Origin: a virus
DNA: 64,000 nucleotides
Direction: 5' to 3' (one strand)
Virus record (IMG/VR): IMGVR_UViG_3300037882_003357
Location: 6,255-70,254 of that record
Position numbers and translations under genes: made by a program. The notes below the pieces were generated by a model. That model was not told the DNA's origin, searched no databases, and saw only the letters and a program-made list of their open reading frames with translations. The first letter of the stretch is position 1. Each line of letters begins with the position of its first letter. Shown here piece after piece: positions 17,676-64,000 of the stretch.

Positions 17676-17681
17676 GATAAG

Positions 17682-45643: not shown

Positions 45644-45645
45644 AA

Positions 45646-46675: not shown

Positions 46676-46685
46676 GGCTTTCTGC

Positions 46686-46714: not shown

Positions 46715-46741
46715 AAAGAAAGTTTAGACGAGGAATTTTGT

Positions 46742-46942
46742 ATGAAAGACAACACTCTCAGCACCACAGCCAAGCAACTGCTTTGGACATTCATTGTAGG
46801 CTGCGGCAACGCTGGCTTAATTTTTTGGCTACAGCCTGTGGGATACTGGCAAATTGTGGCAACATTACAAATCATTCCTTGGTCTGTGTTTGCATTTATG
46901 ATTGTCATAGTTGGCTTAGCGTTTCTGGCGAGTGGTAAATAA
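46742..46942 (+). CDS. small membrane protein
   Basis: 66 aa, two hydrophobic segments, GAGGA RBS. Confidence 0.65.
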   Translation: MKDNTLSTTAKQLLWTFIVGCGNAGLIFWLQPVGYWQIVATLQIIPWSVFAFMIVIVGLAFLASGK

Positions 46943-47205
46943 TGAAATGTTCTGAAGAAGCTCCCCGCAGCACAGCGAGGAAAGCGTATGGAATACAGAC
47001 GCAGGAGATGCGTATCTACATCTTCCCTTGCAAAGCAGACCGAGAGGCTTGGTTGCAAGAAGATTCTGACAACCGCTCACATTTAGGAAGCAACACCTTC
47101 GTTTCTGACATGAGACTTCATGCGATTCATCATGGAACTGCGGCAGCTAATGAAGCGTTTGTTAGTCCAAAGAGTCCATTACAATTTCAAGGAGGACTTG
47201 GATGA
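46942..47205 (+). CDS. hypothetical protein
   Basis: 87 aa, TAATG coupling. Confidence 0.6.
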   Translation: MKCSEEAPRSTARKAYGIQTQEMRIYIFPCKADREAWLQEDSDNRSHLGSNTFVSDMRLHAIHHGTAAANEAFVSPKSPLQFQGGLG

Positions 47206-47351
47206 GATATTTTTTACGTGCCAAAAGCTTTAGTAGTAAGCCTTTGAAGGTAGAAGCTTCTTCAAAAGAACACGCTGAAATACTTATGGGATTACTAGAC
47301 GGTGTTGGCTACTACGATTTCTCCATTGAGGAGCAGAAAGAAAATGAATAA
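47202..47351 (+). CDS. small hypothetical protein (not in ORF track)
   Basis: 49 aa, MRYFLRAKSF...; GGAGG RBS, overlaps both neighbours. Confidence 0.55.
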   Translation: MRYFLRAKSFSSKPLKVEASSKEHAEILMGLLDGVGYYDFSIEEQKENE

Positions 47352-48090
47352 GCCACTATCAGCAAAAGAACTTCTTGAGCTAGACCCGTATTTTCGAGTG
47401 CAGAAACTAGCTGCAATGGACAGTCCTCAGAAGGTGTGCTGGCTTGCCATGCACCAGGACTACAGCGAGAACTTTGTTCTAGATGAACTGCATCACCTAA
47501 ATAAGCCAGAAGCTACTTACGGTGAAAGCTTAGTACGAAACTGTTTAGAAAAAGGACATTATGGAATACTGGAACATCCACAACTTGTCATTGCCACCGC
47601 TGGATTCCCTCACAGTGTTATGCAGCAGCTTCGTACACACAGACACCTGAGCTTCGATTGCCAAAGCAGTAGGTACAGTGGTAAAAGATTTGCAGATGAC
47701 TCTAGAGAAATTGAGGAACTTATCTACCTACGTCCAGTGAATCAGGTCTACAGCGACCGACAAGGCTCTCCTTATACTTATACTCCTGAAATGCGACAAA
47801 GGCACCTTGCTAAGGCAATGAGAAGCCGCTGGGAGTATGTAGAGGACTTGAAGGAAGGTCTTGCTGAAGAACATGCAAGAGGGAACAACTTCTTCGATAT
47901 TCGGCAGAATTTTGTTGTAAGCGGCAACCTTCGTTCCTGGCTGCATATTCTTCAATTAAGAAATAAGCGGGACGTTCAACTTGAATGCCAAGCTTTCTGT
48001 GAAGGACTTCTACCAATTCTTAAAGATTGGACACCAGAAGTACTTGACTATTGGGAAACAAAAGGAACGAGGCTAAAGCTAACACCGTGA
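47344..48090 (+). CDS. thyX: flavin-dependent thymidylate synthase
   Basis: GHYGILEH, QLRTHRHLSFDCQSSRY, EEHARG, NLRSWLH.L.LR...VQLEC. Confidence 0.92.
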   Translation: MNKPLSAKELLELDPYFRVQKLAAMDSPQKVCWLAMHQDYSENFVLDELHHLNKPEATYGESLVRNCLEKGHYGILEHPQLVIATAGFPHSVMQQLRTHRHLSFDCQSSRYSGKRFADDSREIEELIYLRPVNQVYSDRQGSPYTYTPEMRQRHLAKAMRSRWEYVEDLKEGLAEEHARGNNFFDIRQNFVVSGNLRSWLHILQLRNKRDVQLECQAFCEGLLPILKDWTPEVLDYWETKGTRLKLTP

Positions 48091-48326: not shown

Positions 48327-48659
48327 ATGGCAAACGTGCAAGAAGATATCTGGACTCCTGGTGAAGAAGTAGCTGAATTACCTATTTCTTACGAAACTTC
48401 AGCAGGTTATGCAGAGGCAGAAGACTACCCACTTTCTCAAGAAGTGCTAGACTTCTTTGAAGGTACCTACGACAACTTGGACAATCTGATGTCTATTGAC
48501 GGACACCTTCTAGCTTTCCTTGGAGTGACGTATCACGACCCGTTGGTGTGGCTCATTGGAGCAGCAACAATTCTGCTTCGTTCCACTCTTGGGCGTGAGA
48601 CAATCTCTCTAGGGATTGCTAAGTTTCAATCCCTAACTAAAGGAGGTAAAGTAGCGTAA
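48327..48659 (+). CDS. hypothetical protein
   Basis: 110 aa ORF. Confidence 0.65.
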   Translation: MANVQEDIWTPGEEVAELPISYETSAGYAEAEDYPLSQEVLDFFEGTYDNLDNLMSIDGHLLAFLGVTYHDPLVWLIGAATILLRSTLGRETISLGIAKFQSLTKGGKVA

Positions 48660-48886
48660 TGGAAATCTTTAGCTTGTGGACAGTAGAACTCAGAAATAAC
48701 AAAGCATCTCTCAAACGCTTTGTTAAATTTGTAGAAACACATGCTCTACAAGCTGCACCTTACGGACAGGACGATTCAACCCAAGCTTACAACGTACTTC
48801 TAACTAATTCGCTTGCTGAGCGAATGGAAGAAGAAGTCAACCCGTTTGAGATGAATCCTTTTGAAGAAATAGGAGGTGCTACCTAA
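48659..48886 (+). CDS. hypothetical protein
   Basis: 75 aa, GGAGG RBS, TAATG coupling. Confidence 0.65.
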   Translation: MEIFSLWTVELRNNKASLKRFVKFVETHALQAAPYGQDDSTQAYNVLLTNSLAERMEEEVNPFEMNPFEEIGGAT

Positions 48887-48923
48887 CTTTTACGCGACAC
48901 ATTATCTCCTTCTTTTTGACCCT

Positions 48924-48953
48924 GGACTCCTTATTTATTAAGGAGTCTTTTTT
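48924..48953 (+). terminator. Rho-independent terminator
   Basis: GGACTCCTTA / TAAGGAGTCT stem followed by a T run. Confidence 0.65.
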
Positions 48954-49350
48954 GTTCTTGTTGAGCAATATCTAGCCTATCACTCAATCCATCTAGTTGA
49001 TATTTGTAAATTTCCATGTGCTTCTGAGCGTCGTAACTTGTTTTTAGTGCAGTGTCTATTTTAACTGAGTTGTTTGTCACACTTGCAGCCACTGCTGAGA
49101 ACCCAATAGGAATCAGCACCGTGAGAACAACTAAAAGAACTCCCATAAACTTGTTATAAGTCTCTGCAACGCTCTGCATTTTTCCTAGATGCAAGTTTAG
49201 GTTTTGCACTTGCTGACGTGTTTCGTCCAGAACTCCCTCAAGTTTCCCAATATTGTTGTGAACACCTGAGAGTTTCGTGACCTCTAATTCAATTGCGTCA
49301 ATCTTCTCTTCCATCTTGCTCAGTGCGTCTGGATTGCCGTACATACTCAT
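48931..49350 (-). CDS. single-TM coiled-coil protein, holin-like candidate
   Basis: Coiled coil, TM segment GVLLVVLTVLIPIGFSAVAASV, coiled coil; late motif upstream. Confidence 0.5.
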   Translation of the reverse strand: MSMYGNPDALSKMEEKIDAIELEVTKLSGVHNNIGKLEGVLDETRQQVQNLNLHLGKMQSVAETYNKFMGVLLVVLTVLIPIGFSAVAASVTNNSVKIDTALKTSYDAQKHMEIYKYQLDGLSDRLDIAQQEQKRLLNK

Positions 49351-49403
49351 TATCTTGTGTGCCTATCTAAGCTTCGTTGACGCTTCAAATATCCCCCAGC
49401 CAA

Positions 49404-49414
49404 CTTCATTATCG
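49404..49414 (-). promoter_or_regulatory. putative late promoter motif CGATAATGAAG
   Basis: Minus-strand copy upstream of the holin-like gene. Confidence 0.55.
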
Positions 49415-49503
49415 CCAGAAACACGGCAATTTGGTTAAATATTATTTCTAGAAAGGAAAACTGAAGATACTTAGATAAGTAGCCTCTAGTTTTGAGCGGA
49501 GCT

Positions 49504-49514
49504 AGATAATGAAG
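49504..49514 (+). promoter_or_regulatory. putative late promoter motif AGATAATGAAG
   Basis: Upstream of the tail chaperone cluster. Confidence 0.6.
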
Positions 49515-49539
49515 AAGAACTTACAAAGAGCTTAGAGAA

Positions 49540-49815
49540 TTGATTTTAGTGAATCGCAGTCAGACAGCGCTTTTTGCTGGCATTGCTCTTTACGGAGAAA
49601 GCCAGGAAGGGGTGCTTAAGGCTGAGATAGGCTTCATCTTCCCCTCGGCTCCTGCACGATTAGAGCTTTATCTGTGGCCTATGAAGCATGATTCCAGACC
49701 TTTTGGAGTCTACCAGCTTAAAGAACGCCCAAAGCTCATGACAACCTTGATAAACACCCTTCTATTTCAATTTCAAGAGGCACAAAATGACAGTATCAAC
49801 GAAAGCAGCGCTTAG
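49540..49815 (+). CDS. hypothetical protein, probably late
   Basis: 91 aa, TTG start, late motif upstream. Confidence 0.5.
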   Translation: MILVNRSQTALFAGIALYGESQEGVLKAEIGFIFPSAPARLELYLWPMKHDSRPFGVYQLKERPKLMTTLINTLLFQFQEAQNDSINESSA

Positions 49816-50446
49816 TGCGCGTGACCAGCTCATCAGCATGGCAAAGGAAGAATTTGGCATCTCTTACGGCCTGAATTTCAAACTTCCAGAAGAAGTTCCT
49901 TACACTCGTAAGAACATTGGCACCGAAAAGGTGAAAGTATTTGAAGAAACTCCAGCAGGTGAGCTAATCCTGCGCAATCTAGCCATTCGTGGCAACGAGC
50001 GCCTACAAGAGAAGCAAACTTCCTTTATGTTTGAGAATGCAGCAGAGTTGTTCTCAGCATTCCCTGAAGAGTTTCCTTCCTTTGAAGAAGCGTATGCAAG
50101 TTTAAGCGCTATTCCTGATGCCGCTATGAAGAACCCTAAGCTGATGCTGCGCTATCGTGATATTCGCCGTCAAGCAGATAAGAACATTAGCGAGTATGTC
50201 GAGAACATGCGCTTGCTAAGTGACCTCATTTTCTGTTTCTTTCTGTCTCTTCACACAGATGAAGAATGGGAACTGGAGAAGCTTTATTCGTTAGGAGAGA
50301 AAACCAAGAGCGAGCTTACAGAGTTCATGGCTGAACAAATTGGTCTCAAGACTCTTGCAGAACCTTCTGAGGAAGGAGATGCAGAACCAGAAGCTGAAGA
50401 AACTGCTGAGGGAAAGGAAAAGAAACCAGCCAAGGTGACTGGCTAG
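49787..50446 (+). CDS. tail assembly chaperone (gpG-like)
   Basis: Upstream of the tape measure gene; contains the GGGAAAG slippery site near its 3' end. Confidence 0.75.
   Translation: MTVSTKAALSARDQLISMAKEEFGISYGLNFKLPEEVPYTRKNIGTEKVKVFEETPAGELILRNLAIRGNERLQEKQTSFMFENAAELFSAFPEEFPSFEEAYASLSAIPDAAMKNPKLMLRYRDIRRQADKNISEYVENMRLLSDLIFCFFLSLHTDEEWELEKLYSLGEKTKSELTEFMAEQIGLKTLAEPSEEGDAEPEAEETAEGKEKKPAKVTG
50410..50416 (+). other. programmed -1 ribosomal frameshift site
   Basis: G GGA AAG in the correct frame, identical to the lambda G/GT site; the -1 frame is open to 50814. Confidence 0.8.
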
Positions 50447-50814
50447 AAAGCCTTCTCACTTCCGCTAAAGAGGTGCAAGCTGAACTAGACTTTAGAAATT
50501 TCTTTGGGTATCCAGTAAGCTTTATTGTTAAGGAAATACGTCATGCCCAAAGAAAAGTTAATTACTTGAATTGGGGAGGAGCACAGCAATCATTTCTTTT
50601 CTACACCGCAAATCAAGACCCTGAGAAACCAGGAAAGAAACTAAGTCCTATTGATTTTCTTCCTTTTCCTGATGCTATGGCAGACGAAGGAAACAAGGTA
50701 GTCAACAAATTAAGTAGTAAGACTAAAGCTGAACTGGACAGAATCATTCATTCTCCAGGAACGCTGAACCCTCAAATGCATCTACAGATTTATTCTGTGC
50801 TTTACGATAGTTAG
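50410..50814 (+). CDS. -1 frameshift extension of the tail assembly chaperone (gpGT-like)
   Basis: Frame reads GKGKETSQGDWLESLLTSAKEVQAELDFRNFF... into track ORF 50473..50814. Confidence 0.7.
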   Translation, partial: GKGKETSQGDWLESLLTSAKEVQAELDFRNFFGYPVSFIVKEIRHAQRKVNYLNWGGAQQSFLFYTANQDPEKPGKKLSPIDFLPFPDAMADEGNKVVNKLSSKTKAELDRIIHSPGTLNPQMHLQIYSVLYDS

Positions 50815-50932: not shown

Positions 50933-53900
50933 TTGAGCATTAAAGAGACTGTTGAATTAAAAGTTATTGTCACTCCTGAGTTCTCTAGACTGACTAATCT
51001 TGAGCAGAAACTTTCTGCTGGGATGAAAACTCAATTAGACCTCGATGTTACTAAAGCCACTCAAAAGTGGGAAACTCTTAGAACAAATCTTTCTAGAGGA
51101 ATCTCCCCTAAGATTGATGTTAGCAGCTTACACAATTTCAACAGTGTCATTGACCTCAAACTACGTCATTGGGGAGTTCTTAAAGCTGAGTTAGAGCGGG
51201 GAATTGTCCCTAAGATTGATGTATCTAAGCTTTCTTCCACCCCCATAACTATTCCAGTAAAGATTGATTCTTCAAGTCTTCAGCGTGAATTGCGTCAGCT
51301 AAAACAAGCTGCAATTCTAGATGTGAAGATTAAGCAAGATGTGAATGTTCATCTAAGAGGTGAAACATCTAATGCGCTTTACCACGCGATGCGTAAAGCA
51401 TTGGAAAGTCAGAAAGCAAATCCTTTAGAAAAACTCATTGGACTTGCAGTAAGTCCTTTCAAGGCAGCAGCAGATGAGTTCTCTCGTAGCGCTTCACGAC
51501 AGTTCTATCGTGGCACAGGCTTTGGTGAAGGAGCGCAAAGTGCTGGACGAACTGTGGGTGATGTCACTGGAATGGTGGCTAAAAGCTATGGTGATGCGAT
51601 TGCTAAGAAATTATTCGACCTACGCGATTTTGATGCACTTATTGGAAAACTAAACACTGCTGCATACTCTTTTGGAAAAGCAGCAAGCTTTGAAAATGTC
51701 GCTCCTAAATTTAACAAGGCACAAGAAGATTCTGCAAAGTACTTCAAAGAAATTCTAAACGGTAATGGAGTGATGGAAGCTGCTGGAATGGCAGCAGAAG
51801 ACCTCGGTGACTCTTTAACTAAGCTCTACCAGAAACTCAAGTTAGCAGCAGACCCTAAAGAAACTCTCACAGTTATCACTCAAAGCAAAACAGATGGAAC
51901 AAAGCTGCCCAACTTTGCGTTAGATGAGCTTAATAAAATCCTTGTTGCGAACCAAGAGAAAGAGATTCAACGTGGTGCCGACGACTACAAGAAACGTGTA
52001 CAGACGGCTGTAAGAAAGTACGACAAAGAACTTGCAATAGCCATTGCTCAGCCTCTAGCGGATGTGATGCAAAACAGTTTAACCACTGCTGCAATTCGTC
52101 TCACACAGACGGCTCTACGTCCCGTCAGACTTGCGGGGATGCAAGTTGCTTATGACGATGCAATTGCAAACCTAAAATCGCTCACAGCGTTCATGGACGA
52201 CGCTGAGAAGGAATTGTCAGAGCAGGGACTAAAGACCATCTTTGCTTCTGGATTCAGTGATGGTGAGCAAGGCTGGCAGAAGCTTATTGCCGCCATAATT
52301 CCTAGCAGCCAAATCATCACTCCTAAACCTAATGCTCTTTATGGTGAAGGTCAAGGAGTCCAAGGACAGCGACCCACTGACGTAATCTCTGGAGTGCTGT
52401 CTAAAATCTTTGGTACCACAGGGAAAGATGCTTTCTCTAGTGATAACGTTGCAACTGAGCGTATCAGCAATGCATTATTTGGTTACAACAAAACACTTGT
52501 TACTTACCTTGCAGTGTTTGCTCGTCTGTTAGAACTGCAAGAGGGTGATGCCAGCAACATTCAGGGGGTAGGCTACTCCATTGGTAGTGAGTCTATGCGT
52601 CAGCTTTCTGAAGCTCTTCGTGCTTTAGGACTTCCTGAAATTCAAACTGCTGGTTTAGGATACTCTAGCTTAGGAACAACTGCAACTCCTCAAGGTAATT
52701 TAGGCAACAACCGCACAATTCTTCAAAACACAGATGCTTTTGGTGAGAATCTTTATCGCCTGAGCATGTTTGTGGACAAGAGCTTGCGGCAACTCTCATC
52801 TGAAAGCATTGTTCAAGGCGCAGGAAAGTTCGGCATTAAGTCACATGAACTTGAGTCTTACGCTGCTAATCCCAAAGTACTAGAAGAACTAGGAAAGCAT
52901 CTTCAAGGTGTGCTTCCTGCTGGTGTTGTGCAAGGCATGACGGAACCGCAGTTGAAAAGCACTTTCATGCATTTGATAAGTAGTGTTACTGCTCCTGAAA
53001 CATCAATTGCAAGAGCACTTGGTAACAAGAATAGTAAGATTCCTTTGCCCTTAGGAGATAAAGAAGAGCAGCAGGAATTTAGAAAAACAGAAGCTTATGA
53101 CCTTCCAGGCTTACTGGAACAGCTTAATGCGCTATATGAGCTACTTAAAGACAAGAATGCAGAGTTCCTTCCAGTAGCTAAAGACCGTAGAGGCCGCAAG
53201 GCTAAGGAACAACCAGACACCTCTGACCTTAGAGGACTCGCTAAAGAGATGAATAAGGCAGACTATCAGGAAATGCTGAAGTCTGCCACTCCTGCTCTTG
53301 CTCAAGCAGGGTACGCGCCTGAAGATGGTTCCATCAATGGTGTTCTCAATTCAATTGATGCTTTAGCAGAAAGCTTCAATCTGCTAGATACTGCGTTTGA
53401 AAAGCTTGACGCACAAGGACAGCTTTCAGAAGCTGATTTAGCAGAACTTATCAGTGAGTTTGCTAAGCTTGATTTAGCTACTGAAAATTTATACCCTGCA
53501 ATTCGCCAAATCAATTCCATTTTAGGCGACTTAGAAGTTGGCTGGCTTGATGCTGCCACTGCGATGAAGCAGCTTCAGAAGTTCATGACTTTTGAGGAAG
53601 TTAAGTTTGCTGACACTCAAGGACGTGGTGAAGGCTCTCTGCGCACTCAGACAATGACTGAGGCCAGCATTAACAAACTTGTCTATGCTTTAGATAAGAA
53701 TGGTCAAGGAGTGCTCCGTTCTGTTGAGCGAGTAGGAACTAAGAGCGGAAACTTTAATTCTGCCGTACGAGAAGCCGGAGGAGTCTCTCAAGCTGTTGAC
53801 GATGGTAGCCGTCAGCTTGAACTTAGCTTTCCAGCAAAGAGCAGTCAAAAACTTGCAACGTTAAGAGAAAAGATTGCTCAACGCTTTAATCTTTCTCTTG

Positions 53901-56900
53901 AACAGATGGGAGAAATGAGTATTGCAGACCTTCTAGCAATTTCTAAAGAAGCATCTGCTTCCACAGTGAATCAACTAGATAACATTGTGGACACAGTTAA
54001 AGACACCGCCACTGGCGTAGGAACTGTTCTACAAGCAATAGAGAACGCTATCATTCCTAGAAGTGAAATCCTTCAGCAAATTAAGCAGAAAGGTGTTGCA
54101 GATATTAGTAATGCCAAAGAAGCAGCAACTAACTTTGTCACTGGAAACAAGGAAAGAAAAGCCACTAACTTCCTAACCAAGGAAGCAGTGAACATGCTTA
54201 AGAGTAGTCTCAATGAGGCTGACTTTGCTGCACTCTTAAAACAGAGTGGAGGAATGGGAAATCTCTCTAAGCTCATAGCTTCCTACGTGATTTCTCAAGC
54301 AAAAGCAGCAGGAGTCAGTGTTGAGCAGCTTGCTAAGAATTACAAAGCTACTCAGACAGGAGATTCACCAGAAGCTAGTAGCGCTATTGCTACTGCAAGC
54401 TCTGGACTGGCTGCGTTTGCCAATGCTCTTACTAAAGGCGGGGCTGCTATTGAGCAGTTTGTTGCAGGTCTTGCTGCTACTAGAAATGAAGCAAATACTG
54501 TGGCTGCTGCACAAGCTTATGCAGGGCTTACAAAACTCACGCAAGAAATTCTTGAGCCTACGTCAAGAGTAGAAAGAACTCAAAACAAAATAGCACAAGC
54601 TTCTGCTTCTTCTTTAGGAAGCATGATGATGGAGGATGCGCGTAGTGGAGAAGCACTTCTTTCTAAAGCAGAACTACGCAAGGTTGCTAACTTCTTAGGC
54701 ATCAGCGAACGTCAGCTTAGAGAGATGCGGCTATCTTCTAAGCAAGCAATTACTTCGTACCTCATGAGTCAAGTGGAAGCAGGTACACAGTCACTTCCTG
54801 CGGTTAAAGGTGCTATTGAAAACGTAGTAGGGCAGACGGAAGCTCAAAAACAAGGAGGGGATGCTTCAGCACAAAAGATTCTAAGAGACGAAGTTGCAAG
54901 AGTAAGAACACTTGCAACTCAATCTGTTAAGACTTTCCAAGAGCTTGTAAACATCAACAGCGTAGGACTTGGTGAGAAAGGAAGTTCTTCCAACTTAGAT
55001 GCGGCTCTTGCTCAACTACTAATCACTCAAAAGCGCGTACAAGACCTTAGACGCGCTCCTGACATTTCAGCTTCACAAGCAAGAACCCTTGCAGGTTTGC
55101 AAGGTTTTTTAGAACAGCAAATGAAATCAGTTCCTAATGGAAAAACTAGAGCTGAGACAACGTTGGGAACTGTCATGAATGTTTCCTCAGGGGCTAAAGC
55201 AATTGTAGAAAGTGCCGCTTCAGATGTGGAGCAGAACAAAGATAAGTATTTAGAAGCCGTGCGAAACATGGCACAGGAAGGCAACGAAGAACTTTCCACT
55301 CACCAGTATAAAGGTGAGATGTTTTCTGTTGAGAATAATGTGTTTGATAAGCATCAAGAGCTGCTATCTGACATGTACGGCTCAAGTAACGTAAGAGATT
55401 CTTCAATACCTAAGCTAGAAGCTATTCTTCCTAATGTGAATAGCACATTCGGAGCAGTGATTAAGGAATTACTGACAACACTGCATTTTACAGAAGAAAC
55501 TTTTGACACGTTCTTTTCTGAAGTTCAAAAATCTGCTTTAGAACACCTTAATGTGCCTAACACAGGAGTAGAAGCTAACAACAAGCGTTTTGAGTTCAAT
55601 CCTGCTAAGTTTTTTGGTGAACAAAACAAACCACTACCTTTTCAGCCTAATAAGCACACTGACGCAAGTTTTTCAGATGATTTTAGACTTTTACATAGTG
55701 TTCCTGACGTTGGAACACTTGTTTCTATTCTCGAAAAAGGATACCAAAGCAAGTCACAAGGTTTTGACTATCGGCATAAAGAAGTGTTTGGTCAGGATGA
55801 CGTACTCTATGGGACTATCGCACAATCAAAACAAAACTCTAAGTATCCTCACATAAAACCTGTGAATGATAGCTTTTCTCCTGAAACGGGCAACCCTTTA
55901 GGAATGTCAACATATGGAAGAATTACCGTTGAACTTGATTATTCTAAAATTAAAAACAATACTTTGTGGTATCCAGGGGACACTTTAACCCCTAGAGACC
56001 GCATGAGAAGTTCAGGCAAGAACGAACATTTGCTACCTCTTGCTGACTATACACCAATGAAGCAAACTCCTGAGGTTGCTAATCTCAGCATTTTGTGGAA
56101 TGAATTTATCCTTCTAGGTGATGCAGTAAAAAATCTTAGAAACATTATTACTAGAGTTGAAATTAGCGCTTCAGACAATACCACGGTTAGAGATGGTAAC
56201 GATTTTTCCCAGGAGTCTTGGGAAAAAGTTAAACAAATGCTTCCAAATGCGTCTTTTTTTGGTGAGCAGCACTTATTTAAGATGGAATCTACGCGTGTGC
56301 AAGATGGCACAAAGCCTATTGTCCCAGGCAGTGTGCTGCATGAATTAATCGCTCCAATCAAAAGCCTTGTTTCGCAAGAAACAGGTGTTCCTGAATGGTA
56401 TCTACAATCAGTTAATAGCACTCAAAAGCAATACAAGAGTCCTTACGCTGCGGGAAGTTTTACAGAAGACACTAATAGTGTAAACATTGCAGAACCAAAA
56501 GCAATCGCCGCTAAGTACGGCATCATGGTGGATGATTTCATCACCTTGTTGGGACATGAGCTATTTCATAGCACTCAAGCATTTGCTGAGCAGATGGGAA
56601 CGACTCTTCCTGAGCAAGTTCCTTCTCCAGAACATGCTGCTGGCATTCTTCGTTCTGCTAAAGCAAGTACGGACATGGCAGGGATTAGCAATCCCCAAGA
56701 GTATGCTAAGAGACTGGAATACGAGAAGCAAGCCTACACGTTTGAGAAAGCGTTCTACGAGAAGTATGCTGCTGAGCTGAAGCAACTGTTTGGTAAGCAC
56801 GGTAGCCCTGAAGAGAAGTTTGCAATCAAAGAAAGCAGTGCTTCACTTGCTCAACTTAAGCTCGACAGCCAAGTTAAAGCAATTAGTGGACAGAAGCTAG

Positions 56901-59900
56901 GCACAGAAGATATTGTGGCGGCCTACAGCCGTGTCATCAACGCAATGGAGGGAGTTAAGAATCCTTCCAGAGAGTTTGTTGAAGACTTGCAAGGGATGCT
57001 ACGTGCTATTAGCGCAATGCATCCTGAAGCACGTAAAGGAACTCAACTGTTTGAGGGAATGTCTAAGCTTCTTCCTAAAGCCAATGGAGAACATTTCTCC
57101 ATTGATAGCACCAAATCTGTAGCAGATTTGGAAGTGCTTAAGGCTTCCTATGACGACTTAATCATCAAGAGCAGAAAGTACTTTGAGGAAGCTCAAAAAG
57201 CGGGTGATGATGCAGGAATTAAGCAACTTGCTCAAGATTTACAGGTAGTTGCTAATCACTATTTAGACATTTATGGAAGCATCAAGTTACAAGGAGGAAC
57301 ACCTTCTCCAGACTTGCTCACACCTTTAAGAAAATCTGTAACAGGTGACATTGCAGGGAAGCGAGGAGCCGCCTTCGCTGAGAATGTTGGTGCTGAAGGA
57401 ATGAAAGATGTTGCAGCTCATGCAGGAGCAACTGTTGCAACATCTCTAGAAAATGCTGGGAAGAAAGCCGAGAATCTGTTTGCTAACCTTCAAGCGCTTA
57501 GAGAACCTTTCCATCAACTAATAGACGTTGCACAGGCATTTGCAGGGCCAGTGATGGGTCAGATGCTTTTCGGTGTGCAAACTGTAATGCAGAACTTAGG
57601 AATACTTAAGTTCGCTGGACAAGCTGCGTTTGTGACGATTGGATTAGGAGTGGCTGCTTACAGCATTGCACAGCTTGGACTTGCTCAAGAAATTAAAGCT
57701 TTAAGGCTTCAATTTGAATCGTTAGGAAAGAGCGGTTCATCTAACTTAGAGAACATTGGTAAGTTAGCACAACGTACTGGTAGTGACTTCAGAGAAACAG
57801 CTAGACTTGCTGCTGCTATTCAAGGTGGATTAATTAGTACTCCTCTTGAAGACGATGCTCTTGCCATCACTGAGAAGATTACTAAAATCAATCAGGCAAT
57901 GCAGCTAAGTCCTGAAATCTCTCAGCGATTTGAGACAGCAATGACTCAAATGTTTGCTAAGGGCGTGGTGAGCATGGAAGAACTGCGTCAGCAAGCTGCT
58001 GAAGCAGTTCCTGCCATCATTCCTGCTTTTGCCAAGTCTCAGAATCTTAGCGTAGGTCAACTAACTCAGAAGATTAGTGCGGGGGAAGTGAGTTCCTACA
58101 CGGCTGTTCCTAAAGCACTAGATGAACTGGTTAAGATGAGTAGTGGAGCCTACGCAGAAGGACTTAAGAGCCTTCCTGCTTCCATGAATCGCCTTGGCAA
58201 CTCCATGCTGGAAGTGAATGTGGCCTTCGGTCAGTTTCCTTTAGGTATAGTGAGTGGAATGCTTTCTGGTCTTGCTGACCTTGCGGAAGGTCTCACTCCG
58301 GTGGTGAAGGGTCTTGCACCCTTTGCTGGAATCATTGCCACTTTAGGAACAATTCAAGTCTTTGGGATTGTGAGCAAGTTAGGCTTGGTCACTGGAGCAT
58401 TTAGTTTGTTTGGTAAAGGGCTGCAATTCTTTGCTGCACAAACTCTTGCTTCTGCCACCATGAGCATTGCAAGTCTCATGCCTAAGCTTGCTGGAAGCCT
58501 TGTGATGCAGACAGGAGGAACTACTGGTGGTAGTTTACTTGCTGGTGCGTTAAGCATGCCTGTCGCAATTCCCATTGCAGTGGTGGCTGGCTTTGCACTG
58601 ATGATTAACAGTGCAGAGCAATATCGCAAAAAAGTTGAAGACATTCAAAAGATTGGTAAAGATGGCTTTAAGTCCAGTGTAACAGCATCTGCTGCATATG
58701 ACCCTACTGCTGTAACTAGCCTAGGACAAATTCTGGATGTTACGCCGAAAGCAATCAACAGCACTAGAATCTTTTCTGTAGAATCTGAACTTGAGAATAC
58801 GCAAAAAAGACTCGATGCGCTGAGACGAGGTGAATTTGTTGATGTTAGCACTTGGATTACTGGTGAGAAGGGACTAGAAACCAAAGTAGCTAATTTGAAA
58901 AAGACTCTCGGTGAGCTGAAGGAAGGTAGTGGCTTAGGAACTTATGGCAAGAGTGATGATGCAAATCTTGCGGTAGAACAGAACACAGCTCTTAAGCGCG
59001 TATACACTCTCACTGATAGGTTTGCAAATCAACCTCAAAAAAATAGAGAGTTTGCAGGAAGTGAAGTAAGAAGACTTCAAGCTGAGATAGCTTCGAGAGA
59101 AACCGCGCTCACTATTGAAGGTATTAAGCCCAACAAAGACGAGAATAGAATCAACTTACTTAAAGGGCAGGTTTCTGATTACAAGAAAGCTTTAGAAGGA
59201 CTTAATGCAAGCATTGTGCCTTCAGATTCTGATGGGAATGGAGGACTCGCAAGGTTCCAAGCCGAACTTGAAAGAGTTCAGGCTCAAATTGCAGAAGCTA
59301 AACGTACTGGTGGAGAATTTAGCTTACAACTTCCTCCTCTAAAAGCTGCTGAAACAGAGCTGAAAAGACAGATTAGAGAACTTCAGAAGCTCACCAGTCA
59401 GAATCCTCTTAAGATTTCTTTAGCTGTTGCTGAAGGTAGTAATGCAGATACTTCTCAATTGCTAGAGAGACAGTACAACAACAAGCTTGCTTCATTTGCT
59501 AAGCTTCGTTCTCAATTCAAAATAACGTCAGAAGACCAAGGCTATCAAGAAGCCAAGGTAGAGAAGATTAATGCTGACGAGAAGCTAAAGAATCTTAGTT
59601 CCTACATTGCTAAACGATATGAAATTCTTAAGTCTCAGCCTGAAGCTAAAGGAATTGCTTATGGGCTAGGTATTGATGAAAGTACTTTTAACAAGAGTGG
59701 TCTTGAAACTGCTAACTTAGAACAGATTAATGGACAGATTGCTGCCATTGAAGCAGGAGGACAAGCAGCAGAAGCGCTTAAGCCTCAACTAGAACTACTG
59801 AAAGAACTTCGACAGGCACTTGTCAATAAGAGCGCTGCTCACTTAGACTCCGCTAGAGCCGCTCAGAGAGAAGCAGAAGCCAATCTCACCTACTTGAACA

Positions 59901-62900
59901 GCCTCAAGAACGTGCTAAACGTGATTGAGCGCATTAATGCTGCAAATGCTGCTGCTGCATTCGGCTTTGAGAGGTCTAAGCTACAAGCACAAACAGCAAT
60001 TAGTCAAGATGTTGTGTCAGGAAGAGGAAGTTTAGCTGAAGCTGACAAAGCTACTCAGTTACTCGCTCCTGAACTTCTTCAGGAAGAAATAAACAAGAAC
60101 ACTGCTGAACTTGCTCGTAACACTGAAGCGTATTCAGCACTCAGTGGAGACCAGCAGAGGTTCGTGGAAGCTCTCACAGGTACCAATCTTCAGAATCTAG
60201 ACTTTGAGGGCGTGACGAAGGCGCTGAACGCCTTTGATGAAGCTGCTAGAAACCAGAAGCCTTTAGTTGCTGGAGGACTCACAGGAGATTCAGATGTTAA
60301 AGATGCTCTAGGACAGCGCAAGAAGAACCTTGAGCTAGAACAAGCCACTAGAGGGCTGCAACTACAGAAGCTTGACGCAATCAAGCAGAATGTGGTGGAA
60401 GTGACTCAAGCACAAATTCGTCAGATGAAAGAAAGTCTTATTGCCTTTAACGAAAGTGTGAGAGACTACTTCACTCGTTTGAGTGACAACTTAGAAGACT
60501 TGCAATATGACATTGTGAGCCTCAATATTAGTACTGGTGCATTGGAAGCCAAGAACAAGATGCGTCAGGCTATGCTTGGCATGACTGAATCTCTCGACCG
60601 TCAAGTGTTCCAGGTTATCCTTGATACCATCAACGGTATTAACGACATTTTGAACGATGGTGCTTTGCGGCAGAACATGAGAGCTGCTAGAGACTTGTTC
60701 CGTTCAGACACTACTCAGCAGCGTCAGTTTGCCAACTCTCAGAAAGACCGTCAGGAAAGCATCAATCAGATGCTCAAGATTCCTGAGCCTTCCACTCGCA
60801 TTAATGTTGACCAATATGGGCAGAATGATAGTCAACAGAAGCTTGATAAGTTCAACGATTTGATTCAAGGTACTGGTGAGAAGTTTAACTCAGCACTTGC
60901 TGCTCCTTTAAGTGGAATTGTAGATGCTATGACAGTGGCATCTAACCTCATGGCACAAGGACTTGGTAATCTACCTGTTCCTAATGCTCCTACACGTAGC
61001 CAAGGCACTTTACCTCCTCCCCCTGCGCTCTCCGCGCCGGAGGGAACGGGTGGCTTCCTTCCTGTACAACAAGCACCTGAAGGCTACAGTGAGAAACGCG
61101 CTGCTCATGAAGAAGCTATTGAACCATTCAAGGAAGCTTTAAGGAAGGCTACCGGAAGCGTTGGAGTGTTTGACACAGGCTTAGGAAACGTGCTTAGTGG
61201 TGGTAATCCTTTCGTTAAACATATTAACGAGCGAAGTCCTGGTGGCATTGCTGACTTTGGTAAAGGCAATGTACTTAACAACGGGAACTCTGGGCAGTAC
61301 AATCCTTTTGTCAGTTACTTGAGAGAAGTACTGGCTCCAGGAAGCATCATTAACCTTGGAAAGGGGAACGTTCTTGCTCCTCAAGACCGAGGGGGAGAAA
61401 GCTTCAGCAGCCCTGCACAAGCACAGGGGGGCTTCCCTCTAGCTGCTCCTGACTTCGTTAAGGCAGTGAAAGCAGCTTCTCCTGCTGCCTCTTATGGTGG
61501 AAATGAGAGTGCTTCTTCTCCTAGTGGTGGAACTTTTGTCCAGACCGCAATCTTCTGGAATCAAACTCAGCAAGACGTTCTTAGAAAAGAATACGAACTC
61601 ATTCAGCGTAGAGCTGCATTGGGACAGAGTTCTGTACAAGAACTTGCTAGAGCTGCTTCTATCTACAGCGCGTTTGCTGGCAACAACAAGGGAAGAGACC
61701 ATAATGCTTCTGCCATTAGTAATTTCAACCAGGTCACTGGTCAGAACTTTGCACTTCCTACTTATAACAATGGGAAGGCAAGTCAAGATGCAATCAGTGC
61801 TGACTCTTATTCTGCCATTGGTACAAGGGGTGAGAAGTACGATGACTCTACCCTGGCTCAGATGGCTCAGGATGGCCTTGGTAAGTTCTTAGGACACTTT
61901 GGACTCACTCTAGACTCTGGCCTGTCTCATATTGGTTACAACACGTCTGGTAAGGCTAAGGAAGTACTCGCTGCTTACGCGGCTAAAGGCGAAGCCATCA
62001 CTCGTAACAACATTGCTAAGGTGATTGATAGACTTTATGATGGGCTTGAAGGACTTAAAGGAATTTCTGACAAAGCCCTTCAGGTTAATCAAAGTCTGCG
62101 TAATGCTGGAAGAAGCATTGAGCAGAGCATTATTAGCTTGGGTCAAATGTTCAGTACGTTGTCTCCTGGTCAAGAAGCTGCTGCAAGACAGCGGCAGATT
62201 GACGATGCTTCCTTCTCTCTCACTGATAGCATTGCTAACCAGAAGCAGACTCTAGAGAACTCTCAGAACTTCAGTAGCAAGGGACAGTTTGAAGAAGCTT
62301 TGAAGAAGATTGATAGCTTAGATACTAGCAAGCTGCCAAGCTCTGAAGTGCAGAACATCAAAAAGATTGCTGACGTATTCAAGGCCGCTATTCTAGATTG
62401 GGAAGACCCTCAAGGAATGACAGGTGCTAAGCGAGATGTTATCAGCAAAACAATTGCTGCTGAGCTTGCTCTCACTGAAGCTAGAGAACAAGGAGCCATT
62501 GCTGCTAGAAGTGCTGCTCAGGCGAACGCTGCTGACCTTGCAAGACGCGAACAGAACAACAAAAATGCTTCTGTGATGAGTACTCTCGGAGGAGCTATCC
62601 AGTCTGCTGCTCAATCTGCTCCAATCTCTAATCTAGATAAGAGTCGCATTGATGCAGTTGTTGCTTACAACACAGCACTTGTGCAAGCCAAGGTTGACTT
62701 AGATAACTTCAATGAGCAGCTTAAGGCTAGTGGCGATTATGGACAAGAAAGTGGAGACAAGCTACTTCAAGCGTTCTCTCAAGTGCAGAAAATTAAGTTG
62801 ACGGGCTTGAAAGACCAGCTTAAAGTGATTCAGAAGCAGATGAAGGACACCTTCAGCAGCTCAATTAGTACAGGCTTGAACTCAGTGTTAGATGGGATTA

Positions 62901-64000
62901 TGAATGGTAATCTCAATCTGGGTCAGATTGGTCTAGAAATGGCTAAGTCTGTACTGAAAGGTATGGCTGCTCCTGGCATTGATATCATCTCCAACGCTCT
63001 TGGAAACTTCATGACCACTGGAAAGTTTAAGCGCAAGGGACAAGATACTGGAGACTTCAAGGGGGCAATCAAAACGCTAGGGGGCTTTGGCGCAGAGCAC
63101 GGGATGACAACACCTTTAATGAACGTCTCAGCTTCTGTGGTAAACCTAGAAGGTACTGGCTTAGGAGACTTGCCAGGTGGTTCAGGAATTACCGCAGATT
63201 CTCTAGGACTTAGTGGAAGCTCTGGAGCAGAAGGTGGAGGCTTCTTTAGCAGTCTTGGAGGACTTGGTAGCCAAGGCGCTACAGATTACGGCATTGGCGC
63301 TCAGCTTGACCCTCTAGTGGGGGGCTTTGATGCTCTTGGTGCAGCCATGGGAGGGCTACAAGGCATCTTCCCAGGCTTGCTAGACGGTTTTGGTGGGCTG
63401 TTACAAACTTTGCCTCAGTTGCTGAACAGCCTACTTTCCTCTTCAGGAGGCGGTGGAGGAGGACTTGGTGGGATATTAGGAAGTCTGCTAGGAGGTTTAG
63501 GTGGAGGGGGTGGAGCAGGTGGAATAGATGCTGTACTACCTCTACTGTTTGCAGGTGGAGGTACTGTGGGAAGCAGCGTGATTCCTAACTTTGCGGATGG
63601 TGCTTTTGCTGGTGGTGGCACAGTACCAAACTATGCAGGAGGCTCTAATCCCATTGCAGCAGCCATGAGCAGAGAAAGCGCACAGAGCGGCAGGAAACCT
63701 TTTGTGGCAGTACTTCATGAAGGTGAAGAAGTCTTGACAACCAAGAATGGTGAGGCAGACACCATGAGACGCTTGAAAGCTTCTGGTGCTTGGAATCTCA
63801 TCAATCAGAAACGAGGAAACTTCGCAGAAGGAGGTACTGTCACAGGTGCTGGAGCGTACCTCATGGGAGTAAATACTCGACGGGACTCTGCTCTACAGAA
63901 CAGCTCTTCTTCCACTACTTTCGTACTCCCTCCTAACACGGATGCCCCCTCCCTTCGTCGTTCCATTCCACAGCTTGCCTCAGCCTCTGCTCAAGCTCAA
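50933..64000 (+). CDS. giant multidomain tape measure protein, 3' end beyond window (>=4356 codons)
   Basis: TTG start reading MSIKETVELKVIVTPEF. No in-frame stop was seen, which explains its absence from the ORF track. Tape measure signature QMFAKGVVSMEELRQQAAEAVP near 57950; Gly-rich C-terminus with FAGGG / LHEGEEVLT; follows the G/GT chaperones. Confidence 0.88.
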   Translation, partial: MSIKETVELKVIVTPEFSRLTNLEQKLSAGMKTQLDLDVTKATQKWETLRTNLSRGISPKIDVSSLHNFNSVIDLKLRHWGVLKAELERGIVPKIDVSKLSSTPITIPVKIDSSSLQRELRQLKQAAILDVKIKQDVNVHLRGETSNALYHAMRKALESQKANPLEKLIGLAVSPFKAAADEFSRSASRQFYRGTGFGEGAQSAGRTVGDVTGMVAKSYGDAIAKKLFDLRDFDALIGKLNTAAYSFGKAASFENVAPKFNKAQEDSAKYFKEILNGNGVMEAAGMAAEDLGDSLTKLYQKLKLAADPKETLTVITQSKTDGTKLPNFALDELNKILVANQEKEIQRGADDYKKRVQTAVRKYDKELAIAIAQPLADVMQNSLTTAAIRLTQTALRPVRLAGMQVAYDDAIANLKSLTAFMDDAEKELSEQGLKTIFASGFSDGEQGWQKLIAAIIPSSQIITPKPNALYGEGQGVQGQRPTDVISGVLSKIFGTTGKDAFSSDNVATERISNALFGYNKTLVTYLAVFARLLELQEGDASNIQGVGYSIGSESMRQLSEALRALGLPEIQTAGLGYSSLGTTATPQGNLGNNRTILQNTDAFGENLYRLSMFVDKSLRQLSSESIVQGAGKFGIKSHELESYAANPKVLEELGKHLQGVLPAGVVQGMTEPQLKSTFMHLISSVTAPETSIARALGNKNSKIPLPLGDKEEQQEFRKTEAYDLPGLLEQLNALYELLKDKNAEFLPVAKDRRGRKAKEQPDTSDLRGLAKEMNKADYQEMLKSATPALAQAGYAPEDGSINGVLNSIDALAESFNLLDTAFEKLDAQGQLSEADLAELISEFAKLDLATENLYPAIRQINSILGDLEVGWLDAATAMKQLQKFMTFEEVKFADTQGRGEGSLRTQTMTEASINKLVYALDKNGQGVLRSVERVGTKSGNFNSAVREAGGVSQAVDDGSRQLELSFPAKSSQKLATLREKIAQRFNLSLEQMGEMSIADLLAISKEASASTVNQLDNIVDTVKDTATGVGTVLQAIENAIIPRSEILQQIKQKGVADISNAKEAATNFVTGNKERKATNFLTKEAVNMLKSSLNEADFAALLKQSGGMGNLSKLIASYVISQAKAAGVSVEQLAKNYKATQTGDSPEASSAIATASSGLAAFANALTKGGAAIEQFVAGLAATRNEANTVAAAQAYAGLTKLTQEILEPTSRVERTQNKIAQASASSLGSMMMEDARSGEALLSKAELRKVANFLGISERQLREMRLSSKQAITSYLMSQVEAGTQSLPAVKGAIENVVGQTEAQKQGGDASAQKILRDEVARVRTLATQSVKTFQELVNINSVGLGEKGSSSNLDAALAQLLITQKRVQDLRRAPDISASQARTLAGLQGFLEQQMKSVPNGKTRAETTLGTVMNVSSGAKAIVESAASDVEQNKDKYLEAVRNMAQEGNEELSTHQYKGEMFSVENNVFDKHQELLSDMYGSSNVRDSSIPKLEAILPNVNSTFGAVIKELLTTLHFTEETFDTFFSEVQKSALEHLNVPNTGVEANNKRFEFNPAKFFGEQNKPLPFQPNKHTDASFSDDFRLLHSVPDVGTLVSILEKGYQSKSQGFDYRHKEVFGQDDVLYGTIAQSKQNSKYPHIKPVNDSFSPETGNPLGMSTYGRITVELDYSKIKNNTLWYPGDTLTPRDRMRSSGKNEHLLPLADYTPMKQTPEVANLSILWNEFILLGDAVKNLRNIITRVEISASDNTTVRDGNDFSQESWEKVKQMLPNASFFGEQHLFKMESTRVQDGTKPIVPGSVLHELIAPIKSLVSQETGVPEWYLQSVNSTQKQYKSPYAAGSFTEDTNSVNIAEPKAIAAKYGIMVDDFITLLGHELFHSTQAFAEQMGTTLPEQVPSPEHAAGILRSAKASTDMAGISNPQEYAKRLEYEKQAYTFEKAFYEKYAAELKQLFGKHGSPEEKFAIKESSASLAQLKLDSQVKAISGQKLGTEDIVAAYSRVINAMEGVKNPSREFVEDLQGMLRAISAMHPEARKGTQLFEGMSKLLPKANGEHFSIDSTKSVADLEVLKASYDDLIIKSRKYFEEAQKAGDDAGIKQLAQDLQVVANHYLDIYGSIKLQGGTPSPDLLTPLRKSVTGDIAGKRGAAFAENVGAEGMKDVAAHAGATVATSLENAGKKAENLFANLQALREPFHQLIDVAQAFAGPVMGQMLFGVQTVMQNLGILKFAGQAAFVTIGLGVAAYSIAQLGLAQEIKALRLQFESLGKSGSSNLENIGKLAQRTGSDFRETARLAAAIQGGLISTPLEDDALAITEKITKINQAMQLSPEISQRFETAMTQMFAKGVVSMEELRQQAAEAVPAIIPAFAKSQNLSVGQLTQKISAGEVSSYTAVPKALDELVKMSSGAYAEGLKSLPASMNRLGNSMLEVNVAFGQFPLGIVSGMLSGLADLAEGLTPVVKGLAPFAGIIATLGTIQVFGIVSKLGLVTGAFSLFGKGLQFFAAQTLASATMSIASLMPKLAGSLVMQTGGTTGGSLLAGALSMPVAIPIAVVAGFALMINSAEQYRKKVEDIQKIGKDGFKSSVTASAAYDPTAVTSLGQILDVTPKAINSTRIFSVESELENTQKRLDALRRGEFVDVSTWITGEKGLETKVANLKKTLGELKEGSGLGTYGKSDDANLAVEQNTALKRVYTLTDRFANQPQKNREFAGSEVRRLQAEIASRETALTIEGIKPNKDENRINLLKGQVSDYKKALEGLNASIVPSDSDGNGGLARFQAELERVQAQIAEAKRTGGEFSLQLPPLKAAETELKRQIRELQKLTSQNPLKISLAVAEGSNADTSQLLERQYNNKLASFAKLRSQFKITSEDQGYQEAKVEKINADEKLKNLSSYIAKRYEILKSQPEAKGIAYGLGIDESTFNKSGLETANLEQINGQIAAIEAGGQAAEALKPQLELLKELRQALVNKSAAHLDSARAAQREAEANLTYLNSLKNVLNVIERINAANAAAAFGFERSKLQAQTAISQDVVSGRGSLAEADKATQLLAPELLQEEINKNTAELARNTEAYSALSGDQQRFVEALTGTNLQNLDFEGVTKALNAFDEAARNQKPLVAGGLTGDSDVKDALGQRKKNLELEQATRGLQLQKLDAIKQNVVEVTQAQIRQMKESLIAFNESVRDYFTRLSDNLEDLQYDIVSLNISTGALEAKNKMRQAMLGMTESLDRQVFQVILDTINGINDILNDGALRQNMRAARDLFRSDTTQQRQFANSQKDRQESINQMLKIPEPSTRINVDQYGQNDSQQKLDKFNDLIQGTGEKFNSALAAPLSGIVDAMTVASNLMAQGLGNLPVPNAPTRSQGTLPPPPALSAPEGTGGFLPVQQAPEGYSEKRAAHEEAIEPFKEALRKATGSVGVFDTGLGNVLSGGNPFVKHINERSPGGIADFGKGNVLNNGNSGQYNPFVSYLREVLAPGSIINLGKGNVLAPQDRGGESFSSPAQAQGGFPLAAPDFVKAVKAASPAASYGGNESASSPSGGTFVQTAIFWNQTQQDVLRKEYELIQRRAALGQSSVQELARAASIYSAFAGNNKGRDHNASAISNFNQVTGQNFALPTYNNGKASQDAISADSYSAIGTRGEKYDDSTLAQMAQDGLGKFLGHFGLTLDSGLSHIGYNTSGKAKEVLAAYAAKGEAITRNNIAKVIDRLYDGLEGLKGISDKALQVNQSLRNAGRSIEQSIISLGQMFSTLSPGQEAAARQRQIDDASFSLTDSIANQKQTLENSQNFSSKGQFEEALKKIDSLDTSKLPSSEVQNIKKIADVFKAAILDWEDPQGMTGAKRDVISKTIAAELALTEAREQGAIAARSAAQANAADLARREQNNKNASVMSTLGGAIQSAAQSAPISNLDKSRIDAVVAYNTALVQAKVDLDNFNEQLKASGDYGQESGDKLLQAFSQVQKIKLTGLKDQLKVIQKQMKDTFSSSISTGLNSVLDGIMNGNLNLGQIGLEMAKSVLKGMAAPGIDIISNALGNFMTTGKFKRKGQDTGDFKGAIKTLGGFGAEHGMTTPLMNVSASVVNLEGTGLGDLPGGSGITADSLGLSGSSGAEGGGFFSSLGGLGSQGATDYGIGAQLDPLVGGFDALGAAMGGLQGIFPGLLDGFGGLLQTLPQLLNSLLSSSGGGGGGLGGILGSLLGGLGGGGGAGGIDAVLPLLFAGGGTVGSSVIPNFADGAFAGGGTVPNYAGGSNPIAAAMSRESAQSGRKPFVAVLHEGEEVLTTKNGEADTMRRLKASGAWNLINQKRGNFAEGGTVTGAGAYLMGVNTRRDSALQNSSSSTTFVLPPNTDAPSLRRSIPQLASASAQAQ

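Follow-up and report, generated by a model that had tools for sequence, protein, structure and literature searches.

Does a tail tape measure protein of more than four thousand residues act as a ruler only, or does it also carry enzymes ahead of its ruler part? The question is raised by the window analyzed here, a stretch of 64,000 nucleotides covering positions 6255-70254 of one 70,254-base virus record (IMGVR_UViG_3300037882_003357), in which one giant open reading frame (ORF) runs from position 50933 to the end. An earlier note on this DNA had taken the ORF for a tape measure protein (TMP) with at least three enzyme modules, the ones it named lying in the N-terminal half. Judged by its sequence, the product of the ORF is the tail tape measure of a siphovirus-like phage not yet in culture, and we somewhat favor its reading as a ruler with an N-terminal enzyme array, made up of a conserved hydrolase-like module (B) and a variable cassette slot at residues ~1470-2050, which here holds modules D and E. 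This reading builds on the open frame and its tape measure identity, the module boundaries, the conservation of candidate catalytic residues, the resemblance of two modules to known folds, and the gain and loss of modules among relatives.

Reading frame and tape measure identity

The ORF listing places the giant ORF at 50933..64000 on the plus strand, with 4356 codons, a TTG start and an open 3' end, as the earlier note had described it. Translation of 50933-63999 yields 4355 residues (named P0001) with zero stops; in-frame stops that would split the frame were looked for in this translation and none was found. The longest ORF in the remaining five frames across 50933-64000 has at most 132 aa. 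With residues 1-2250 as query, 5.8 billion proteins yielded a single match, P0002 (4233 aa), whose source name is tape measure domain protein; residues 1440-2065, run with HMMER in full against 1.84 billion representatives, retrieved four proteins only, namely P0002, P0003 (4168 aa), P0004 (4251 aa), and P0005 (3895 aa). All four relatives are metagenomic giants of 3895-4251 aa with the same build, and since four independent proteins share this architecture the ORF is not a chimera. The TTG start is backed by P0002, which starts at the same point (beginning MSIRETVELKVIV, the giant ORF beginning LSIKETVELKVIV), and by the purine-rich stretch AGGGAAGAAG immediately upstream of TTG 50933.

The recognizable tape measure domain had been placed near 57700 (~residue 2250) and is indeed found there. 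Residues 2253-2427 match Pfam TMP_3 (PF20155; E 1.3e-16, with 61.4 bits where the cut-off is 41), and residues 2273-2880 match PHROG 2335, "tail length tape measure protein" (E 1.9e-26). The frame and the parts outside its candidate enzyme modules are the following.

50933..64000, plus strand: the whole tape measure ORF, 4356 codons from its TTG start, still open where window and contig end
50933..52054, plus strand: N-terminal region, residues 1-374 (P0002 73% over residues 1-1473, P0004 29%, P0005 26% over residues 1-254)
53120..55351, plus strand: stretch of ~745 aa between modules B and D, residues 730-1473, 73% identical in P0002
57626..58618, plus strand: hydrophobic segments of the TMP core, residues 2232-2251, 2461-2494, and 2532-2562
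57689..58213, plus strand: Pfam TMP_3 domain, residues 2253-2427
57749..59572, plus strand: PHROG 2335 match, residues 2273-2880
63080..63652, plus strand: glycine-rich C-terminal region (27% Gly in residues 4001-4250), before the conserved LHEGEEVLTTKN end segment
63902..64000, no strand assigned: right-hand copy of the contig's perfect 99-bp inverted terminal repeat, covering the last 33 codons on the record

With the C-terminal half as query, tblastn gave matches to genes annotated as tape measures in 223 phage records, each aligning to at most 13% of the query. The hydrophobic windows and the glycine-rich C-terminal end of a tape measure are present, the genome also encodes head and tail-tip proteins, and the LHEGEEVLTTKN end segment is conserved and common to the relatives. 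There is no cysteine (count = 0) in the 4355 translated residues, and self-BLAST found no internal repeats. A standard ruler part of ~2100 aa, comprising TMP_3, the hydrophobic segments, a long helical part, and the glycine-rich C-terminal end, is preceded by an N-terminal extension of ~2050-2250 aa. Within this extension, residues 1-374 are possibly a head-proximal anchor, and residues 730-1473, which like the other inter-module stretches gave no family match, are taken as a helical spacer.

The end of the window coincides with the end of the contig, and the giant ORF has no stop codon on the record. Reverse-complementing the last 99 bases of the contig (window 63902-64000) reproduces its first 99 exactly, with identity collapsing at base 100, and the record is classed as ITR (inverted terminal repeat) and 100% complete. 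A circular genome with a stop 6 codons past the contig junction was considered and rejected, because the perfect reverse complementarity of the first and last 99 bases makes these six "extra" codons the ORF's own end read backwards. A true telomere with protein-primed replication was set aside as well: the protein-primed family B polymerase PF03175 has no match in the genome, where the polymerase evidence consists instead of a PHROG DNA polymerase and a weak match to the family A polymerases. Since the repeat of exactly 99 bases cuts the gene short of its stop, and no protein-primed polymerase was matched, a fold-back made during assembly is a more probable origin of the repeat than a telomere; assemblers commonly use a word size of 99. 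The "complete" label of the record may be unsafe, given a repeat that ends the ORF ~10 codons before its stop. The C-termini of P0002, P0004, and P0005 (...ASRGQTNA and similar) extend ~10 residues past the end of the giant ORF, so that ~10 C-terminal residues and the stop are missing; by this comparison the predicted protein, of ~4366 aa, is essentially complete.

Candidate enzyme modules ahead of the ruler

Three modules stand out in the N-terminal extension, with the following positions and candidate catalytic residues.

52220..52912, plus strand: module B, serine hydrolase-like, residues ~430-660
52577-52579, plus strand: Ser549 in GYSIGS (GYSIG, residues 547-551)
52844-52846, plus strand: His638 in KSHELESY, a module B motif
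Residues 436-442 (IFASGFS), 479-483 (QRPTD) and around Asp601 (NTDAFG), plus strand: other module B motifs, from the sequence
55352..56302, plus strand: module D, insert resembling an ADP-ribosyltransferase (ART) fold, residues 1474-1790, modeled core residues ~1570-1778
55694-55696, plus strand: His1588, on a modeled strand
55808-55810, plus strand: Tyr1626, on a modeled strand
56102-56104, plus strand: Glu1724, on a modeled strand
56300..57067, plus strand: module E, zincin-like metallopeptidase, residues ~1790-2045
56555-56569, plus strand: HELFH motif, residues 1875-1879
56723-56725, plus strand: Glu1931, within the motif ExxAYTFE

Module E is the best supported of the three and is likely a zincin (gluzincin-type) metallopeptidase, a reading favored by its motif, by the conservation of this motif, and by a consistent family of structural matches. 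The HExxH peptidase motif reported earlier proved to be HELFH at residues 1875-1879, and H1875, E1876, H1879, and E1931 (a Glu 52 residues past the second His) are kept in 5 of the 5 copies compared (P0001, P0002 twice, P0004, and P0005; identity 25-27%). The alignment of P0001, P0002, P0004, and P0005 keeps AAKYGI, HELxHxxQ, AST, and ExxAYTFE, and in the second P0002 copy the corresponding motifs are HELRH and ELDAYNF. Modules D and E were modeled together with AlphaFold2 (AF2; residues 1474-2065, five-row alignment), and module E has a predicted local distance difference test score (pLDDT) of 75-92 in the best model. The order of its elements, a helix, three strands, the HExxH helix, and a later helix with Glu1931 (HExxH and Glu1931 falling in model helices 393-415 and 448-477), matches that of the zincin core as described in the main text of Iyer 2017 (PMC5512222). 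A second look with VIA on model residues 316-560 gave zinc peptidases in 18 of 50 rows, at Z 5.0-7.5, values that VIA rates as middling (e.g., ERAP1 at Z 7.5 with a root-mean-square deviation (rmsd) of 3.2 and 118 aligned, IrrE at 6.7, 6mdx at 6.7, or BepA at 6.1), and lugdulysin appeared at Z 7.4 in the wide VIA search of the D+E model. The top row of Foldseek against the PDB was a putative Zn-dependent peptidase (3c37, E 0.011), with selecase, BepA, and PprI next. At the sequence level, Pfam with residues 1747-2065 and E up to 10 gave no peptidase family, the sole match being to a DUF (domain whose function is unknown; E 0.051), and no PDB chain matched module E by sequence or profile. The flanks around the modeled modules are long helices in the AF2 model of residues 1474-2065; together with the module boundaries, this agrees with the discrete N-terminal modules separated by helical spacers that the earlier note had proposed.

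Module D probably has an ART fold; the leads are individually weak yet convergent, and the module is moderately supported overall. The candidate catalytic residues lie in the motifs LLHSV (1586-1590), VLYGT (1624-1628), and WNEFILL (1722-1728). In the model, H1588, Y1626, and E1724 (model residues 115, 153, and 251) are found in strands 111-117, 151-158, and 251-255, so that the ART-like motif set previously noted holds to a moderate degree, with an ART-type model core and with H, Y, and E on strands that would be those expected. In this core, pLDDT is 64-89 for the strands and <50 for the loops. H-Y-E on strands 1, 2, and 5 is the arrangement of the PARP, diphtheria-toxin, and DarT class, and SopF and OspC3 are NAD+-using ART-type enzymes. 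Yeast Tpt1 (7yw4) aligned to model residues 97-305 at Z 8.3 (rmsd 3.8, 110 of 120 target residues), ranking 3 of 48,161 chains in the wide VIA search and being the only chain at Z >=8 in the second look; the other Tpt1 entry, 8tg3, reached Z 6.6. The first 36 ranks of Foldseek against the PDB include DarTG (E 0.06, prob 0.85), DarT1, DarT, and Tpt1 (prob 0.90), as well as a Salmonella effector with NAD and ARF1, PltA, and OspC3, the rows for the DarT, SopF-like, PltA, and OspC3 entries being weak (E 0.06-1.0). Pfam gave no family, DUF3626 included, for residues 1474-1746 with E up to 10. Among the predicted viral structures of BFVD three matches reached E <=1e-3, including a Nodularia phage protein with DUF3626 (E 5.9e-4), and the ESM Atlas returned DUF3626, DUF3841, and OspC clusters at 0.85-0.88, under the Atlas line of 0.9, with a feature score of 0.88 for DUF3626, which is given as the domain of SopF in PMC6682159.

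For module B the chances of a catalytic Ser/His hydrolase are about even, and those of an alpha/beta hydrolase fold somewhat lower. As far as sequence can tell, its motifs are ordered and spaced as in a small hydrolase of the Ser-Asp-His type. A hydrophobic strand with GG at its end comes first, then NPxTD and G-x-S-x-G-G, next a strand that closes with G-x-P, and last an Asp and G-x-x-x-H-x-x-x-x-Y, with the nucleophile-elbow GxSxG, the acid, and the His following each other in the expected order. In an alignment of P0001-P0005 and two metagenomic giants (16-22% identity for six sequences), Ser549 and His638 are invariant in the 7 sequences, as are three glycines, Pro481, and Asp483. Most rows have an Asp behind a hydrophobic stretch (Asp601 in P0001), in a column that is not cleanly aligned throughout. 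A module B hidden Markov model (HMM) found the module in 6 of 81 loci, in all cases within TMP ORFs of 3121-3613 aa, and one of these loci (L056), which was outside the training set, was matched at E 5.7e-19.

Comparison of the homologs for domain gain and loss, as the earlier note had suggested, revealed that the modules come and go while the ruler stays. By BLAST, P0002 is collinear with P0001 over residues 1-1473 (73%) and 2066-4147; it is without residues 1474-1746, returns to 73% for 1747-2045, and has 49-58% identity in the ruler. P0003 shares with P0001 only residues 1498-1776 (38%) and the TMP core, and has zero HExxH. What P0004 and P0005 have in common with P0001 is the N-terminal 250-370 residues, the stretch ~1800-2039 (25-26%), and the ruler. 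Module E is thus found once or twice in P0001, P0002, P0004, and P0005, and module D in P0001 and P0003 only (at 38% identity in the latter), being absent from P0002, P0004, and P0005.

In P0002, residues ~1720-2125 include ~400 residues not found in P0001, with a second, diverged zincin copy. This copy has HELRH at 1836 and is 27% identical to the first, and its presence indicates that protease modules can stand in tandem in the cassette slot.

A scan of metagenomes that started from the TMP domain gave 80 loci, of which seven have ORFs of 3073-3613 aa; in six of these seven, TMP_3 lies 1600-2140 residues from the start. The giant TMP family considered here consists of five proteins and the six metagenome loci carrying module B. 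The HMMs of D and of E gave zero matches in 1111 ORFs of 81 loci, no relative was confirmed in viral contigs with either the N-terminal half or the module B alignment as query, and tblastn of the N-terminal 2256 aa against known phages gave no match. One metagenomic locus (L002, 720-11555, near-identical to L060, 690-11528) encodes a tape measure ORF of 3612 aa with module B near residues 409-487 and a kinase-like stretch at residues 1081-1165 ahead of TMP_3 at 2133 (Pkinase E 6.9e-6 and ABC1 E 2.3e-4, both below cut-off). Tentatively, the contents of the cassette slot across the family may be an ART fold, a zincin or two, or a stretch resembling a kinase.

Proposed working and rival explanations

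Under the reading as a ruler with an N-terminal enzyme array, the whole protein would be incorporated into the tail as a single chain. At infection the C-terminal ruler would exit first and form a conduit, and the N-terminal array would come next, just ahead of the DNA, and then refold. The zincin could then cleave the chain, releasing the modules; the ART domain would modify a host protein or nucleic acid with cytoplasmic NAD+ (it is placed in the cytoplasm because NAD+ is available there), and the hydrolase-like module would attack an envelope component. More doubtful is the wider proposal that giant TMPs of 3100-4400 aa are a chassis delivering host-takeover enzymes that act in the cytoplasm, with the zincin freeing the cargo after ejection.

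Several observations weigh against this picture. No module matches any Pfam family with E up to 10, the DUF at E 0.051 apart, none matches a PDB chain by sequence or profile, and Foldseek of the D+E model against the PDB gave nothing at E <=1e-3. One of the five AF2 models of D+E has a mean pLDDT of 63.2 (the rest 47, 46, 38, and 35), and even in this best model 178 of 592 residues are below 50. The module D part of the alignment consists of two sequences only, and of these P0003 keeps the His and the Glu but has Phe in place of Tyr. In VIA, a Z under ~8 can reflect a common arrangement, Tpt1 is an RNA 2'-phosphotransferase and not a protein ART, and neither DarT nor SopF is in the 50 rows of either VIA list, which does not by itself exclude them. 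Of the alpha/beta-hydrolase motif set claimed earlier, GYSIG at 547-551 and the conserved motifs stood, and the fold is putative: the AF2 model of module B has a mean pLDDT of 36.5 and is mostly helical with two short strands, none of the 5 module B sequences matched a hydrolase family in Pfam with E up to 10, the PDB profile search gave coiled-coil noise only, and the ESM Atlas had nothing above 0.77. Stand-alone relatives of module B were found neither in shorter proteins nor in proteins of similar length, profile search included. Folded 30-kDa domains are too large for the lumen of a tail tube, so the cargo would travel unfolded or sit at the head end or elsewhere. Expression, presence in the virion, cleavage, ejection, and activity of the modules are all putative.

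It is unlikely that the protein is a ruler throughout, with all 4366 aa measuring a tail of ~650-700 nm and N-terminal modules that are structural or decayed and non-catalytic. The Gordonia phages Hotorobo, Monty, and Woes have TMP genes of 9,969-9,984 bp, called among the longest in 2016, and the account in PMC4982279 pairs 9,984-bp genes with tails of ~540 nm; scaling from these figures gives ~700 nm for the giant gene, which suits a full-length ruler, and ~340 nm for the part from TMP_3 to the end alone. The lack of sequence-level family matches and the helical, low-confidence model of module B also suit it, but the invariant positions are candidate catalytic residues at 16-27% identity, two modules are modeled as globular alpha/beta folds and not as long helices, and relatives swap modules while keeping the ruler part. 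Nor do we consider it likely that the protein is a precursor of two products, the N-terminal half being cleaved or made separately (as a discarded scaffold or a head-packed ejection protein) and the C-terminal half being the tape measure. Ordinary TMPs do have TMP_3 near the N-terminus (residues 494-675 in locus L051, from ~residue 147 in locus L041), a protease module sits directly ahead of the ruler part, and metallopeptidase-bearing polyvalent proteins are processed before or after packaging in the main text of Iyer 2017. No internal start or cleavage site was identified in the giant protein, however, and a single frame is retained in all five family members.

A narrower alternative, which we regard as improbable, concerns module D, which would be a Tpt1/KptA-like RNA 2'-phosphotransferase or a DarT-like nucleic-acid enzyme using NAD+ and not a protein-modifying toxin. 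Tpt1 is the best structural match (Z 8.3 and 6.6 for the two entries) and DarT entries are among the Foldseek rows; against this stand the H-Y-E configuration, that of the PARP/diphtheria-toxin/DarT class, and the Atlas and BFVD leads towards DUF3626/SopF-type proteins, and the matches are too weak for a clade assignment. An assembly artefact, in which misassembly fused separate genes or sequencing errors removed stops, is highly improbable. The artefact-like 99-bp inverted terminal repeat touches the end of the ORF, but four proteins of other assemblies have the same part order and similar lengths, P0002 is collinear over residues 1-1473 and 2066-4147, and six metagenome loci have module B inside TMP ORFs of 3121-3613 aa.

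Genome context, known systems, and significance

PHROG matches outline the rest of the phage, with a head maturation protease (12054-13430), a major head protein (14059-14982), a portal (18839-20362), a DNA polymerase (8524-11307), an exonuclease, and, in the first 6 kb of the contig, a helicase and PhoH. Two large proteins have tail-tip domains of the gene-transfer-agent type (Rcc01698_C in 26002-29085; phiJL001 Gp84 N and BR0599 in 38261-41221), and the structural genes are dispersed among replication genes over window 12054-41221. The tape measure gene is not part of a classic tail operon; it lies ~10 kb past the tail-tip proteins, with genes for thymidylate synthase and ribonucleotide reductase (43868-48090) ahead of it. 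Between these and the tape measure gene are five small ORFs (48327-50814), which had no PHROG or Pfam match, tail assembly chaperones and major tail protein included. The sheath family PF04984 was not found in the genome, which weakly fits a non-contractile tail. Megablast of window 40000-64000 gave no match among known phages, the major head protein has at best ~26% identity, to T1-like phages, and ARAGORN found zero tRNA genes in the window. At 31048-34797 the phage encodes a further large protein (1249 aa) that lacks an explanation, with no Pfam match and a weak PHROG "transcriptional regulator" match at residues 1055-1129 (E 7.4e-5).

Tape measures are known as rulers, at times with cell-wall hydrolases (M23, lytic transglycosylase) placed after the TMP domain, and polyvalent proteins as head-packed multi-enzyme effectors. 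Muralytic tape measures likewise join a TMP_3 ruler and enzyme modules in one chain, as in locus L051 with Peptidase_M23 (E 3.1e-25) and a weak SLT match. Their enzymes, both of those in L051 included, come downstream of TMP_3, whereas the modules of the giant protein lie ~200-1800 residues upstream, and the zincin-like and ART-like modules would be non-muralytic, unlike M23 and SLT.

Polyvalent proteins, as set out in the main text of Iyer 2017 (PMC5512222), have a zincin metallopeptidase hub (HExxH plus a Glu on the next helix), sometimes in several copies, with ARTs being common and kinases occurring. If the module assignments hold, the giant protein resembles them as a very large phage protein stringing together unrelated enzyme domains, and the two zincin copies of P0002 and the kinase-like stretch of L002 add to the likeness. 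There are also differences: polyvalent ARTs are described there as H-Y-D and module D is H-Y-E, and polyvalent carriers are head-packed whereas the giant protein is a tail protein. The terms "tape measure" and "tape-measure" have 0 occurrences in that main text. The polyvalent-associated Pfam models have no match in the giant protein, and the BFVD rows named "large polyvalent protein associated domain" are weak (E 0.014-0.096). The earlier comparison with phage polyvalent proteins therefore survives in the architecture and in module gain and loss, and does not extend to family membership; because no module belongs to any Pfam family by sequence, the likeness is one of architectural analogy.

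VIP2-like ARTs fused to MuF or to proteases in actinobacteriophages, of the R-S-E type in the accounts given in PMC7302621 and the bioRxiv Cluster AZ preprint, likewise place an ART on a virion assembly or structural protein, as a predicted virion component. They are recognizable by sequence and sit on head proteins, whereas module D is an orphan H-Y-E module inside a tape measure. Like the Gordonia phages mentioned above, this phage has a siphovirus genome of the 70-77 kb range with a large share of it taken by the TMP gene, >13% in Gordonia and 18.6% here (13,068 of 70,254 bases). The giant gene, of at least 13,068 bp, goes ~3 kb beyond the Gordonia genes, and while TMP length tracks the 540-nm tail in Gordonia, half the length of the giant protein consists of non-ruler modules. 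Among the matches listed, the lowest E for the TMP domain (5e-11) belongs to the cultured cyanophage Cr-LKS4 of Cylindrospermopsis (OQ625504.1), whose tape measure (2987 aa) is also large, with the match near residue 995 and the gene away from other tail genes. The TMP domain alone aligns (12% of the query), and modules B, D, and E were not found there by HMM. In the Cr-LKS4 genome (L082) the TMP gene is at 12019-20982 and a "class 3 lipase" gene at 23172-23774, ~2 kb downstream.

In the literature searched, which left most subscription journals outside its scope, no description of an ART or a zincin inside a tape measure was found. Enzyme-bearing tape measures and polyvalent proteins are both known. 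The modules would represent orphan ART-like, zincin-like, and serine hydrolase-like families, recognized by no sequence library, and the relation of tail length to residue count bears on whether only part of the TMP acts as the ruler. If the reading is true, the tail ruler and the polyvalent effector protein, so far described apart, would merge in one chain, and ~2000 residues of enzyme cargo would move through the tail, or along with it, before the genome does. Storing so many residues of foldable domains and moving them through a tail would pose a physical puzzle, and the range of what a siphovirus tail delivers to its host would widen.

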